Shown piece after piece: positions 34,650-54,520 of a stretch of DNA of 64,000 bases. Source of the DNA: a virus (lineage: Duplodnaviria > Caudoviricetes). The stretch spans positions 30,010-94,009 of the IMG/VR virus record IMGVR_UViG_3300025858_000016, one strand, 5' to 3'. Every line of letters starts with the position of its first letter. Within the stretch, counting starts at the first letter, position 1. The position numbers and the translations under genes were made by a program. The notes beneath the pieces are model-generated. The model had not been told where the DNA came from and searched no databases. It saw only the letters and a list, made by a program, of their open reading frames with translations.

Positions 34650-34678
34650 AGGGTTATAGCCAGTTATTCATTTCAATC

Positions 34679-34912
34679 ATGGATGATAAATTAAGGCAAG
34701 AGCTAAGATCAAAGAAAATTAGGGAAATGAAAAACCCAACAATCGTAATGAATGAAAACGATTTTGAAGTTTTCAAAAAAGAAATTGAATCAAAAACAAC
34801 TGTTGTAGTTAGCGACAATCCAACTTATGAAGGTGTACCTATAAAGACAAATAATATAATTCAAAAAGGCAATATTGTTGTGTACGATGATGTTTCTCAT
34901 AATTGGCTATAA
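34679..34912 (+). CDS. cassette 1 hypothetical protein
   Basis: Stop TAA lies inside the CTATAAC inverse core. Confidence 0.65.
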   Translation: MDDKLRQELRSKKIREMKNPTIVMNENDFEVFKKEIESKTTVVVSDNPTYEGVPIKTNNIIQKGNIVVYDDVSHNWL

Positions 34913-34993
34913 CGTTTGAGTGTAAAAAAACGTTTTAATGTTTTTTACACTTTGTTATGTGCCGTTTTAATAAAAAATTAAAATCAAGAAACA

Positions 34994-35383
34994 ATGGAAA
35001 CAAAAATCGTTTACAGAATTGAAAATCCAGAAGATAAAGACGGGATGTGGTACACAAAAGATGGTATTCTTAGAAAGAAAATACACATACTTTGCCCTGA
35101 TGGGATAGCAAAAGATTTTCCAATGCCTTTTAACCCTATTCACAAAAAAGACGGTCATATTTGGCAAAGTGCAGGAAAGAGTGCTGAAAATATGAATCAA
35201 TGGTTCACAGCTTCTGATGCAATAAACTTATTCAATAACGGCTTTAAGTTATTTGAATTTGAAACCACAATGTTTCAGGAATTAGAAAATGAAATTCTTT
35301 TTTGTCTAAAAGGAATAGTCAAACAAAGAGAAATTCCATTGGAAAATGTTTGGGATATAGCTTCGGTGATTGGTCGCCCCTAA
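34994..35383 (+). CDS. cassette 2 hypothetical protein
   Basis: 129 aa; stop codon at the start of the TAAAATGGCACATAAC repeat. Confidence 0.7.
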   Translation: METKIVYRIENPEDKDGMWYTKDGILRKKIHILCPDGIAKDFPMPFNPIHKKDGHIWQSAGKSAENMNQWFTASDAINLFNNGFKLFEFETTMFQELENEILFCLKGIVKQREIPLENVWDIASVIGRP

Positions 35384-35480
35384 AATGGCACATAACGAAT
35401 GGCTATACGTAATAGCCTGAAAGCCTTGATAATTGCGGGATTTGAACTTTAGAGAAGATTTATCTATAAAATAAAGTAAT

Positions 35481-48332: not shown

Positions 48333-49597
48333 AATGTAGCGGATTTACAAAAAAGTATTATCTTTGCATAAATAAAACTATTTAATAGTATAATGAAGAC
48401 AATTTTTCGGACATATCAATTTGAATTGCAGCCAACACAAGAGCAAAAAGTGTTGTTGGATAAGCATTTTGGTTGTGTTCGGTTTGTGTTCAATCACTTT
48501 TTAAATGAAAGAAAAGAGCAATATCAAGCAGATAAAAAGTCTGATAGTTACTATAAACAGGCTGCTACATTAACCGAACTAAAAAAGAAAGAAGAAACTG
48601 CTTGGCTCAAAGAAGTGAATAGCCAATCATTACAATTTGCTTTAAGATGTTTGGATACTGCTTACGTAAACTTCTTTAGAGGTAACGCTAAGTTTCCACA
48701 ATTTAAGTCAAGGAAAAAGAAAAACTCATTCACAGTTCCACAGTTCGCAAAACTTGAAGTTGGTAGATTTTTTGCACCAAAATTCAAAGAAGGTATTAAA
48801 GTAAATGTTCACCGTGAAGTTAAAGGGGAAATTGGTAAATGCACTTTGAGCAAAACACCAACAGGAAAATATTTCGTATCAATACTATCAGAAGAACAAT
48901 ATCAACCAAAAGAAAAGACTGGTGCTGTTTGTGGAATAGATTTAGGTTTAAAAGACTTTGCTATTACTTCTGATGGTGTCAAATTCAAGAACAACAAATA
49001 CACAAAACAATATGAAAAAGAGTTAGCGAAAGCACAAAAACATCTTTCTCGTAAAGTAAAGGGTAGTAATTCGTTTGAAAAACAAAGACGAAAAACAGCC
49101 TTAATTTACGAGAAGATAACCAACTCACGAATGGATAACTTACACAAGGTATCTCACAAATTGGTAACTGATTATGATATAATCGCATTAGAAGATTTGA
49201 ATGTGAAAGGTATGGTCAAAAACCATAAACTTGCAAAACATATATCAGATGCCAGTTGGGGAACTTTTGTAAGATTACTTGAATACAAAGCAAATTGGAA
49301 TGACAAACAAATTGTTAAAATCAATCGCTGGTATCCAAGTTCAAAAACCTGTTGTGAGTGCGGTTGGATAAATCAAGACTTAAATCTTTCAATAAGAGAA
49401 TGGACTTGCAAAAATGGACACGTATTAGACCGTGACCTTAATGCAGCAAAGAACATTTTTAAAGAAGGATTAAAAATATTAAACTCGGCAGGAACTGTCG
49501 AAAACACGGATGGAGATGGTGTAAGAAGTAGTAATACTCAACTATCTACGAAGTCCGAAGCCCAACCCATCAGCTTTGCTGTGGGTGGGTAGTTCAC
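48325..49597 (+). mobile_element. IS200/IS605-family non-autonomous element (tnpB only); left end approximate
   Basis: tnpB ORF; right-end hairpin GCCCAACCCA...TGGGTGGGT and terminal TTCAC at 49593-49597; own TATCTTTG promoter box. Confidence 0.8.
48393..49592 (+). CDS. tnpB: RNA-guided endonuclease TnpB
   Basis: FGCVRFVFN, GIDLGLK, IALEDLNVKGM, SSKTCCECG, DRDLNAAKNI. Confidence 0.95.
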   Translation: MKTIFRTYQFELQPTQEQKVLLDKHFGCVRFVFNHFLNERKEQYQADKKSDSYYKQAATLTELKKKEETAWLKEVNSQSLQFALRCLDTAYVNFFRGNAKFPQFKSRKKKNSFTVPQFAKLEVGRFFAPKFKEGIKVNVHREVKGEIGKCTLSKTPTGKYFVSILSEEQYQPKEKTGAVCGIDLGLKDFAITSDGVKFKNNKYTKQYEKELAKAQKHLSRKVKGSNSFEKQRRKTALIYEKITNSRMDNLHKVSHKLVTDYDIIALEDLNVKGMVKNHKLAKHISDASWGTFVRLLEYKANWNDKQIVKINRWYPSSKTCCECGWINQDLNLSIREWTCKNGHVLDRDLNAAKNIFKEGLKILNSAGTVENTDGDGVRSSNTQLSTKSEAQPISFAVGG

Positions 49598-52849: not shown

Positions 52850-53031
52850 AAATTAATAAAGAAGAATTAGACAAATTGAGTATGGCAGATTTTATAAAGA
52901 GGAAAAAGGAGATTGAAGCACATAATGCAAAGTTATCTGGTCTGATGGTGAAATTGGTAGACACGATAGACTTAAAATCTATTACTCATAGCGAGTGTGC
53001 CAGTTCGACTCTGGCTCAGACTACAAAATAA
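52846..53031 (+). CDS. hypothetical protein reading through tRNA-Leu
   Basis: ATGA-coupled start; 3' half overlaps the tRNA. Confidence 0.4.
   Translation: MKINKEELDKLSMADFIKRKKEIEAHNAKLSGLMVKLVDTIDLKSITHSECASSTLAQTTK
52939..53023 (+). tRNA. tRNA-Leu(TAA)
   Basis: GGTCTGA/TCAGACT acceptor, TGGTGAAATTGGTAGACAC, ATAGA-CTTAAAA-TCTAT, long variable arm, GCCAGTTCGACTCTGGC. Confidence 0.93.
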
Positions 53032-53290
53032 GTTCTTTGAAATTCCTGATTGAAGCAAACAAATTATAGAGCCTGCTTGGTACGACATATAGTCAAAAGT
53101 TATAATTAGACCTCTTGCAAAGGTCGTTGTTTGTGGATAGATAAAAGTTGACAAAGTGTTACATATTCAGTTGTCCAGATGCTCGGCGCAACCGACGGTG
53201 GGTAGCAGACTGTAGATTAGACTCAGATATGTATCACAGAGGTTAATGTATTATTCCGTAGGCATAACGGTCAGGAATTTTTAAAGGACT
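53030..53290 (+). ncRNA. unassigned ~260-nt multibranch structured RNA (RNA-1)
   Basis: Closing stem AATTCCTGA/TCAGGAATT, many internal helices, no ORF, higher GC than the genome. Confidence 0.7.
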
Positions 53291-53291
53291 A

Positions 53292-53680
53292 AAGTTCTTT
53301 GAATAATTGAAAATCTTTGGCTAAACATTGATCCTTTGTGAATAAAACTATCTCACAATAGTAATTATCTGTGTCATGCGCATGTCGCTTGTAAGTAAGC
53401 TAAAACTGGCAGATAGATTCACATAAAGATGATAATCCTGAATTGACAGGATGTTGAATATGCAACATACGATGGCAGAAATGCTGATAGGAGTTGTAGG
53501 CGTAAAAACATCAATGGAGTAATCCTATACGTGTTGTTCCCTTGAGAAAGGATACCATGATTCAATTCTTGATATGTAAAAATGGCATATCCAACACGAA
53601 TGAGTTCTCAGCATGACCCTACTACTCTCGTAAGAGATACGTGGAATAAATTTCAGTGAGTCTGAAGATAGAGGGTGCTA
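53292..53680 (+). ncRNA. unassigned ~370-390-nt ornate RNA with two predicted pseudoknots (RNA-2)
   Basis: About 10 helices, GNRA tetraloops, TGAGAA/TTCTCA loop pairing; no ORF. Confidence 0.72.
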
Positions 53681-53703
53681 AAACAATTTATAAAACAAAT
53701 ATT

Positions 53704-54021: not shown

Positions 54022-54059
54022 GATTTTTAAATAAAGTGATTAGTAAAGTTCTTTGAAGA

Positions 54060-54125
54060 TATTGTTATATTGTTGACGTTATTTGTAACTATGTTTGGAC
54101 CGGGGTTCGATTCCCCGCAGCTCCA
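54060..54125 (+). ncRNA. ssrA: tmRNA acceptor piece (permuted gene)
   Basis: GGAC-CGGGG-TTCGATT-CCCCG-CAGCTCC-A; upstream part is complementary to the coding piece. Confidence 0.9.
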
Positions 54126-54155
54126 CATAATTCGCCTAATGCGTAATCGGTGAAC

Positions 54156-54289
54156 AGATAATAAACGATGTTGTTCTCGAGAAGAACTGAGGAAAGTTTG
54201 ATCCAAGAAGTAACCCATAATCCAGGGAGAGGTGGTTTTTTATATTTTTTTATACCCACCAGATGATGCCAGGTGATCGTTTATTATCT
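54156..54289 (+). ncRNA. structured RNA nested in the tmRNA intervening segment (RNA-3)
   Basis: Perfect 14-bp closing stem, three internal hairpins, GAGGAAAGT motif. Confidence 0.6.
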
Positions 54290-54297
54290 TCTTATTA

Positions 54298-54454
54298 GGG
54301 GCTGACTGGTTTAGACAGCATAAGTTGTGGATAAAAGAGATATAACAGTGCAAAATAGATGGCAACATCTTTACACAAAAACAGGAAATGAGATTAGCTG
54401 CATAAGCTGAATTTTATTTCTGATTAGGGTGGCCTGTCTAAGATAGACCACCCT
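54298..54454 (+). ncRNA. ssrA: tmRNA coding piece; tag (A)GNIFTQKQEMRLAA at 54361-54405
   Basis: 5' GGGGCTG pairs with CAGCTCC including G3-U70; tag frame ends LAA-TAA inside a hairpin. Confidence 0.9.
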
Positions 54455-54463
54455 TCTTATTTA
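54426..54463 (+). terminator. terminator hairpin ending the RNA island
   Basis: AGGGTGG.CTGTC-TAA-GATAG.CCACCCT then TCTTATTT. Confidence 0.7.
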
Positions 54464-54520
54464 TAATGAATAAAAATTAATGATAAATATAAAAGTTATA
54501 TTTATTTTTATTAATTTTAT
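54459..54520 (+). promoter_or_regulatory. degenerate promoter module
   Basis: ATTTATAATGAATAAAAAT-TAATGATA ... TATTAATTTTA. Confidence 0.5.

Follow-up and report, generated by a model that had tools for sequence, protein, structure and literature searches.

Phage T4 RNAs C and D, of about 120–140 nt, are small stable RNAs of unknown function that are co-transcribed with tRNAs and excised by host tRNA-processing enzymes, and we know of no boxA or long closing stem in either of them. The orphan structured RNAs GOLLD and ROOL are often encoded by phages or prophages near tRNA genes and have no known protein partner (10.1101/2024.12.08.627333). Here we describe RNA-1, a 260-base element (window 53031–53290, + strand) that is confirmed as a real folded RNA gene, not catalogued before. 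The window is the whole 64,000-nt stretch analysed, bases 30010–94009 of a 94-kb IMG/VR phage contig; its G+C content is ~30%, and the + strand carries almost every gene. Like GOLLD and ROOL, RNA-1 is tRNA-adjacent, phage-borne and without a linked protein; however, it has no sequence or structure match to them in Rfam scans and is 2–4 times smaller, and as to multimers the palindromic TTGCAA in one of its hairpin loops (P3) is only suggestive. It bears no sequence relationship to T4 RNAs C and D. With Y RNA/YrlA it shares a conserved long stem formed by its 5′ and 3′ ends and, in two copies (L108 and L107b), a variable module with a T-arm-like hairpin, but there is no Rfam match and the hairpin is missing from most copies. 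No Ro/Rsr gene was found in protein scans of 20 ORFs of this genome.

In layout, RNA-1 is comparable to the leaders and spacers of rRNA (rrn) operons, which combine boxA with an RNase III stem (Nus ‘rrnTAC’). The decamer that opens RNA-1 is the rrn boxA of Bacteroidota, it lies at or within an upstream arm whose partner sequence is made about 150–320 nt later, and several boxA-led units stand in a row with tRNAs. RNA-1 differs in that its cargo of 190–360 nt is phage-borne and unrelated to rRNA, and in that no part of its boxA stays unpaired once folding is complete; that Nus factors bind it and that RNase III cuts its stem is what we infer here. The lambda nut sites (boxA-boxB) likewise place a host boxA-type signal on the phage’s own transcript. 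RNA-1, however, has no boxB or N-type partner, and its boxA is of the rrn type and precedes RNA genes rather than protein operons.

Genes in the window include those for a DnaE-type polymerase, a ribonucleotide reductase, a ligase, GroEL and a portal protein, and between the replication and structural modules sits an RNA island in which tRNA-Leu(UAA), RNA-1, a further non-coding stretch, one small ORF and a permuted two-piece tmRNA follow one another. The features outside RNA-1 that are referred to below are:

48393–49592, TnpB/IS605-type transposase-like gene, 399 aa (phrog_506, E 5e-133)
52939–53024, + strand, tRNA-Leu(UAA), CCA not encoded (Rfam tRNA, 56.6 bits; ARAGORN)
53294–53303, + strand, second boxA decamer, at the start of the next non-coding unit (RNA-2)
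54035–54496, + strand, permuted two-piece tmRNA gene (RF04321, 62.3 bits; ARAGORN)
54048–54057, + strand, third boxA decamer, preceding the tmRNA

The tRNA-Leu gene ends 6 nt before RNA-1 and is probably transcribed along with it, so that maturation of the tRNA 3′ end would release the 5′ end of RNA-1. A tRNA or tRNA-like gene lies 0–100 nt upstream in 6/9 copies of the family, the window included, and the order of RNA-1 followed by tmRNA is found again in L027. RNA-2 (window 53292–53700) folds no better than shuffles (z −0.33), and in L108, L027 and L107 no counterpart of it was detectable beyond boxA.

The tRNA-like genes just upstream of RNA-1 in L027 (3573–3646), L104 (7579–7670), L105 (1292–1383) and L107 (978–1053) are unusual. 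All four are called ‘tRNA-???’ by ARAGORN, with two-base ‘anticodons’ that denote abnormal anticodon loops, and the Rfam tRNA model reaches its gathering score in three of them (L027, L105 and L107), with no match in L104. These genes may be decoy or otherwise non-standard tRNAs.

A preliminary description of this DNA had read the element as a non-coding RNA with a closed multibranch fold that belonged to no family it recognised, a reading that is now supported by shuffles, homologues and Rfam alike. On the + strand, RNA-1 folds at −73.7 kcal/mol vs −55.9 ± 4.3 kcal/mol for 200 dinucleotide shuffles (z −4.16; 0/200 as good), and all nine copies of the family fold better than their shuffles (z −2.4 to −4.8). 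The − strand of the RNA-1 region has a z of −2.2, and fold z-scores alone do not tell the strands of the family copies apart. The + strand is indicated as the RNA by its wobble pairs: 39/328 paired cells (12%) of the family alignment are G-U, equivalent to A-C mismatches on the other strand, and they include a conserved U-G wobble in the closing helix P1 and an invariant G-U opening P2. Moreover, RNA-1 always has the orientation of its flanking genes, and in 6/9 copies a run of 4–6 T stands at, or no more than 2 nt from, the end of the P1 3′ arm; the window and L108 copies are without a T run and have another boxA unit directly after them.

A protein-coding reading was dropped, in agreement with the earlier remark that no plausible ORF is present: an open frame was sought in all + frames of every family member and none was found, each frame holding 2–10 stops. 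Rfam 15 (4227 models, covering GOLLD, ROOL, raiA, Y RNA, 6S, RNase P, SRP, self-cleaving ribozymes and riboswitches) places nothing over RNA-1 in the window, either at gathering score or at E≤10. Eight loci scanned at gathering score likewise gave no match for the RNA. Of three homologue-bearing loci scanned at E≤10, L107 and L108 gave nothing, and the one match in L110, to a human lncRNA model and in the opposite orientation, was at chance level (17.8 bits vs a gathering score of 60, E 2.4).

Common to all copies are a closing helix P1 of 19–21 bp, an invariant block of 35 nt and a 3′ block of 22 nt, with two variable domains between them. The elements of the window copy are:

53031–53049, + strand, P1 5′ strand, boxA in the outer half, covarying in the inner half (pairs with 53271–53290)
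53032–53041, + strand, boxA-type decamer GTTCTTTGAA, in the outer 5′ strand of P1
53050–53054, + strand, J1/2, TTGAA, invariant in 8 copies (alignment A5); TTGAAAACA in the divergent paralogue L107b
53055–53060, + strand, P2 5′ strand, GCAAAC (pairs with 53129–53134, GUUUGU)
53061–53108, + strand, domain A (P2a), variable hairpin domain with a covarying closing stem, 37–165 nt in relatives
53109–53125, + strand, hairpin P3, GACCT-CTTGCAA-AGGTC (family form GACCY-CUUGCAA-RGGUC), predicted independently by RNAalifold
53126–53143, + strand, invariant strand GTT-GTTTGT-GGATA-GATA within the 35-nt block: P2 3′ strand, J2/4 (GGAUA) and start of P4, or else the 5′ strand of Px
53144–53251, + strand, domain B, variable, closed by P4, 38–120 nt in relatives
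53252–53270, + strand, 3′ block: P4 3′ strand TATT, then hairpin P5, CCGT-AGGCATA-ACGG; near-invariant in 9/9 copies
53271–53290, + strand, P1 3′ strand

In P1, the outer half pairs GUUCUUUGAA with UUCAAAGGAY and is followed by a hinge (a bulge or small internal loop) and then by the variable inner half. P2 encloses the variable domain A and P3, whose invariant loop contains the palindrome. In the window, P4 joins GATAA (53140–53144) to TTATT (53251–53255), and across the family GAUA and an extension to it pair with UAUY and a complementary extension. P5 abuts the P1 3′ strand. In eight copies the 35-nt block is identical at 34–35/35 positions. A tRNA T-arm-like hairpin, GTGGTTCGAMTCCAC, is present in domain B of L108 and L107b only.

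To score the proposed structure, a MAFFT alignment (A5) was compared with controls in which the partners were slid by 1–3 columns and with 500 shuffles. The structure leaves 90.2% of cells paired, vs 36–51% with slid partners; double-sided changes occur in five pairs, a number equalled in 2/500 shuffles, and the covariation score lies above all 500, these shuffle statistics being inflated by shared ancestry because the alignment holds only eight distinct sequences, some of them close relatives. Alignment-free comparisons point the same way for two of the helices. Cognate P1 arms pair at −19.7 kcal/mol vs −13.9 kcal/mol for non-cognate arms (0/20000 permutations as good), each 5′ arm pairing best with a 3′ arm of its own lineage, and the flanks of domain A (P2a) pair at −3.9 vs −1.1 kcal/mol (6/50000 permutations as good); the flank-only test of P4 is weak (p about 0.1). 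Relatedness among the copies inflates these figures as well. Individual changes are consistent with this picture. P1 of L104 and L105 carries a 2-bp insertion on both arms; in L106 and L107b a U-to-A change within boxA is matched by A-to-U in the P1 3′ arm; P3 of L109 replaces U-A by C-G; and at the base of P4, G-U becomes G-C in two copies and the adjacent A-U becomes C-G in two. P1, P2a, P3 and the base of P4 keep their pairing through compensatory changes. P2 has as its sole change a C-to-U in L106 that keeps a U-G pair, and P2, being otherwise invariant, is beyond testing by covariation, as is P5, also too invariant.

All helices listed in the preliminary description are present in the sequence where it placed them, and comparison shows which of them are features of the family. 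The pairing of the ends (53031–53049 with 53271–53290) is backed by the comparative data, as are the internal helices GCAAAC/GTTTGT, ATTATA/TATAAT (P2a) and GACCT/AGGTC (P3). The other half of the internal set falls in the variable domain: GGATAG/TTGTCC, TGCT/AGCA around TCGG-CGCAA-CCGA, and CTGT.GAT/ATCACAG are peculiar to the window copy, and the domain that holds them varies in length (38–120 nt) and sequence in every relative. GTTA.TG/CATAAC competes with the conserved hairpin CCGT-AGGCATA-ACGG and is lost in relatives.

The invariant core admits two models. Without imposed structure, RNAalifold recovers P1 and P3, and in the core it replaces P2 and P5 by a helix Px, which pairs UGUUUGUGGA with UCCGUAGGCA, and lengthens P1 by UUG/CGG (model B). 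The segment UGUUUGUGGA (53126–53137) has as its partner either GCAAAC upstream (53055–53060) or UCCGUAGGCA downstream (53255–53264). Under constrained energies, the two models are near-isoenergetic: model A (P2, P4 and P5) is favoured in five copies and model B in four, and in the divergent paralogue model A is better by 10 kcal/mol. Covariation cannot choose between them because the segments of both are invariant. Among the few changes, the C-to-U in L106 and the U-to-C in L104/L105 fit model A, and two changes in L104 fit model B, one of which breaks P5. The core of RNA-1 may therefore be bistable, a conformational switch, and model A is adopted as the working fold; a segment bound to serve two alternative partners would help explain its own invariance.

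Beyond the window, we found eight further copies (seven distinct) in six other phage or metagenome contigs, giving a family of nine copies, eight distinct sequences and seven contigs, with lengths of 189–359 nt (about 190–360) and with window/L108, L027/L110 and L104/L105 as close pairs. A neighbouring 388-aa protein, which as a single query returned no loci, led through an alignment of its relatives (24 sequences) to 80 viral loci, and the RNA was present only in L027, with a perfect match of 37 nt and a matching 5′ end. From the shared block, 20-mers then located L104 and L105 in IMG/VR and L106/L107, L108, L109 and L110 in metagenomes (L109 and L111 are one contig), and nhmmer block profiles recovered L107b, a divergent second copy in L107. 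The copy count rests on these 20-mers and block profiles, and the census leaves out near-identical 81-kb contigs and several relatives of 20–50 kb seen via the neighbour protein.

Other routes to homologues gave nothing further. A DNA search of INPHARED cultured phages matched the tRNA only; an exact 26-mer of the window’s variable domain had 0 matches in IMG/VR; the tmRNA T-arm, used as an anchor, gave 21 loci, none of them akin beyond the T-arm; and a literature look-up of sequence strings returned primers only. Scanning 185,579 GTDB species genomes for an 18-mer gave ten matches, all due to chance. L122, another chance 18-mer match, was dropped as a homologue. A BLAST of RNA-1 against 401 Bacteroidota genomes gave short chance matches only, none near RNA genes. 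With chance matches only in these two collections, the RNA appears confined to phage DNA within the searched data. The family is absent from Rfam, and its carriers are diverse tailed phages, probably of Bacteroidota.

By whole-contig tblastn, G005 (L027) and G007 are syntenic relatives of the window phage at 50–60% amino-acid identity, and the 82-kb G007 has no RNA-1, either at the syntenic place or elsewhere. G006 (the L105 contig, 99 kb) and G009 (the L109/L111 contig, 60 kb) have at most two or three weak protein matches with the window phage and have the same RNA core, and whole-contig tblastn found no protein common to all carriers. The same core in phages nearly without shared proteins implies horizontal movement of the module or, alternatively, very strong constraint. 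RNA-1 is thus a module complete in itself, either passed from phage to phage or kept under such constraint, and would need no phage-encoded partner.

The preliminary description had separately noted a boxA-like 12-mer and a stable-RNA operon. Both observations are supported, the 12-mer being boxA as found in the rrn operons of Bacteroidota. Three units of the island are headed by the decamer GTTCTTTGAA: RNA-1 (53032), the non-coding unit after it (53294) and the tmRNA gene (54048). Four copies are present on the + strand of the 94-kb genome vs 0.26 expected, three of them in the RNA island and the fourth inside an ORF. We compared it with 33 16S rRNA loci from sampled Bacteroidota genomes (L145–L178). 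GTTCTTTGAA occurs 75–210 nt upstream of 16S in 11/33 loci, and GTTCTTTGA[ACG] (GTTCTTTGAA or GTTCTTTGAC/G) occurs in the 16S leader and/or the 16S–23S spacer of about 30/33, at 75–210 nt upstream of 16S and/or 300–620 nt downstream, before 23S. These positions identify the RNA-1 decamer as a host-type boxA. In the operons L145 and L146, boxA runs straight into a 16S processing-stem arm that pairs with sequence downstream of 16S. The published boxA consensus is the gamma-proteobacterial GYTCTTTAANA (PMC5725501), to which the RNA-1 boxA has one mismatch.

Searches of RNA-1 blocks against rrn flanks with nhmmer gave no significant similarity beyond the decamer, and given this null the words TTGAAGCA and TTGTTTGTG, shared with two leaders, are not claimed as homology. 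The boxA core of L106 and L107b is GTTCATTGAA, with a compensating change in the 3′ arm; in these two copies selection may have kept the pairing and not recognition by Nus factors. RNA-1 has both a sequence equal to the boxA of rRNA operons and the placement of that boxA within the upstream arm of a long-range stem, and by these two features it appears laid out like a miniature rRNA gene, a host-type boxA joined to a long closing stem.

As separate observations, rrn spacers often have TTGAAAGAG 4–5 nt after boxA, much like the starts of RNA-2 (GTTCTTTGAATAATTGAAAAT) and of RNA-1, and four MAGs tried for boxA were without rRNA genes, the repeated motif in them being a coding tandem repeat.

With a host-type boxA in the 5′ strand of P1, RNA-1 is most likely made like an rRNA. 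RNA-1 would share a + strand transcript with the tRNA and tmRNA genes next to it, and its first ten bases (boxA) would recruit NusB/S10 and other Nus factors. P1 would close once its 3′ arm is made, through boxA/Nus tethering of a long-range stem, and release would come about by 3′ processing of the upstream tRNA together with cleavage in P1 by RNase III or another nuclease specific for double strands. Where RNA-1 begins and ends, how stable it is and how it is processed are in this scheme predictions from the sequence.

Conservation as strong as that of the RNA-1 core usually reflects direct contact with conserved cellular machinery. The core is invariant in phages without shared proteins, so the mature RNA, instead of partnering a phage protein, most likely attaches to some highly conserved part of the host's apparatus for translation or RNA processing, or forms an RNA-only structure. 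We favour, with somewhat better than even confidence, the reading that RNA-1 encodes a discrete non-coding RNA, both stable and structured, that is made in the manner of an rRNA and whose mature form likely engages conserved host machinery or acts as RNA only. In what is the weakest step of the scheme and is put forward with low confidence, the mature RNA could be a stable trans-acting RNA directed at conserved host machinery of translation or of RNA processing, or could act as RNA alone, like GOLLD and ROOL. A more specific proposal is tentative: some phages, probably of Bacteroidota, might carry ‘mini-rrn’ operons in which a host-type boxA hijacks the rRNA transcription and folding machinery and mass-produces stable RNAs, with RNA-1 as a conserved cargo, a trans-acting RNA of a new class, whose invariant and perhaps bistable core would during infection engage a host machine that is conserved universally, be it the ribosome, the RNA polymerase/Nus complex or an RNA-processing enzyme.

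The best-surviving alternative, which we hold to be unlikely, is that RNA-1 is only a cis-acting spacer for processing and folding, insulating and processing the tRNA and tmRNA transcripts, with an excised RNA that has no function of its own. Its boxA and long-range stem have exactly the layout of an rrn leader or spacer, and the window, L027, L107 and L108 copies lie between tRNA or tRNA-like genes and boxA-led units (called as tmRNA in the window and L027). However, the L104, L105, L109 and L110 copies stand alone between protein genes and are followed by a T run, and a spacer would have no need of a near-invariant 35-nt block and conserved loops inside the stem.

Less probable still is a self-cleaving or otherwise catalytic RNA whose junction core cuts the polycistronic transcript or another RNA. 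Ribozymes typically combine a multi-helix junction with unpaired strands that do not vary and peripheral domains that do, and RNA-1 lies between RNAs that need separation. Yet RNA-1 fits none of the self-cleaving models of Rfam 15 at E≤10, a conserved position at which it might cleave did not emerge, and host tRNA-processing enzymes with RNase III would be enough for the task.

We regard as highly improbable a mobile element or recombination site acting at the DNA level, with the arms as terminal inverted repeats (of a MITE or cassette) and the interior as a protein-binding site. The inverted terminal arms of ~20 bp, the presence in otherwise unrelated phages and the occurrence of the same 13–14-mer on both sides of the window and L108 copies would suit such an element. 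Nevertheless, RNA-1 is single-copy, with no second copy found in the 94-kb genome, and the flanking repeat is present in only 2/9 copies, where it is the next boxA. The arms hold conserved G-U wobbles that are mismatched on the other strand, and the internal helices P2a and P3 covary. RNA-1 does not show the combination of multiple copies, target-site duplication and arms that are repeats as DNA by which MITEs are recognised. There is likewise no linked transposase: comparison with four contigs that are related or carry RNA-1 gave no homologue of the TnpB-like gene (48393–49592). An attC-like cassette, recognised by end cores of the GTTRRRY/RYYYAAC type, was set aside: the ends of the integron-like cassettes at 34653–34913 and 34951–35399 read GTTAT...ATAAC, and the P1 arms do not.

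An equally improbable reading, that of a riboswitch-like cis-regulatory leader of the following gene, accords with a junction containing invariant nucleotides, a core with two near-isoenergetic folds, and several copies in which an ORF starts 20–30 nt after P1 and a T run follows P1, but RNA-1 is located in stable-RNA islands, its downstream genes are unrelated to each other and change with each lineage, and what comes next in the window and L108 is no gene but a boxA-led RNA. Two further candidates were rejected: a TnpB omega-RNA or IS200-IS605 end (the tnpB-like gene is 3.4 kb off and absent from other carriers, and both ends of RNA-1 are locked in P1) and a retron (no reverse-transcriptase gene came to notice near the RNA-1 locus).

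Returning to the favoured reading of a discrete, stable RNA made like an rRNA, the family adds a well-delimited structured RNA whose 35-nt block is kept in phages with proteins that are 50–60% identical or undetectably related. To our knowledge there is no earlier sequence-level evidence of phages placing a host rRNA-type boxA before stable RNA genes, and with boxA preceding RNA-1, a second non-coding unit and a permuted tmRNA, the use of the Nus-factor chaperone system by phages becomes testable. Furthermore, the type of boxA is a possible marker for host prediction, and L108, at about 190 nt, offers a compact natural model for boxA-assisted formation of a long-range helix.

Two of the metagenome contigs show further arrangements around RNA-1. 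L107 (minus strand, 1432–1) is a 1.4-kb contig made up almost entirely of RNA island: a tRNA end is followed by the divergent RNA-1 paralogue (1418–1062), the tRNA-like gene (1053–978), an unassigned boxA-led RNA (972–535) of ~440 nt, the canonical RNA-1 (530–234) and a strong terminator. In L108, a T-arm plus acceptor-like minihelix (~1555–1590), called by neither ARAGORN nor Rfam, lies between tRNA-Leu and RNA-1. After RNA-1, at ~1784–1960, come a boxA and then an apparent acceptor piece of a permuted tmRNA, ending ...ACTCCACA, and a further boxA-like GTTCTTTGAT stands ~180 nt later.
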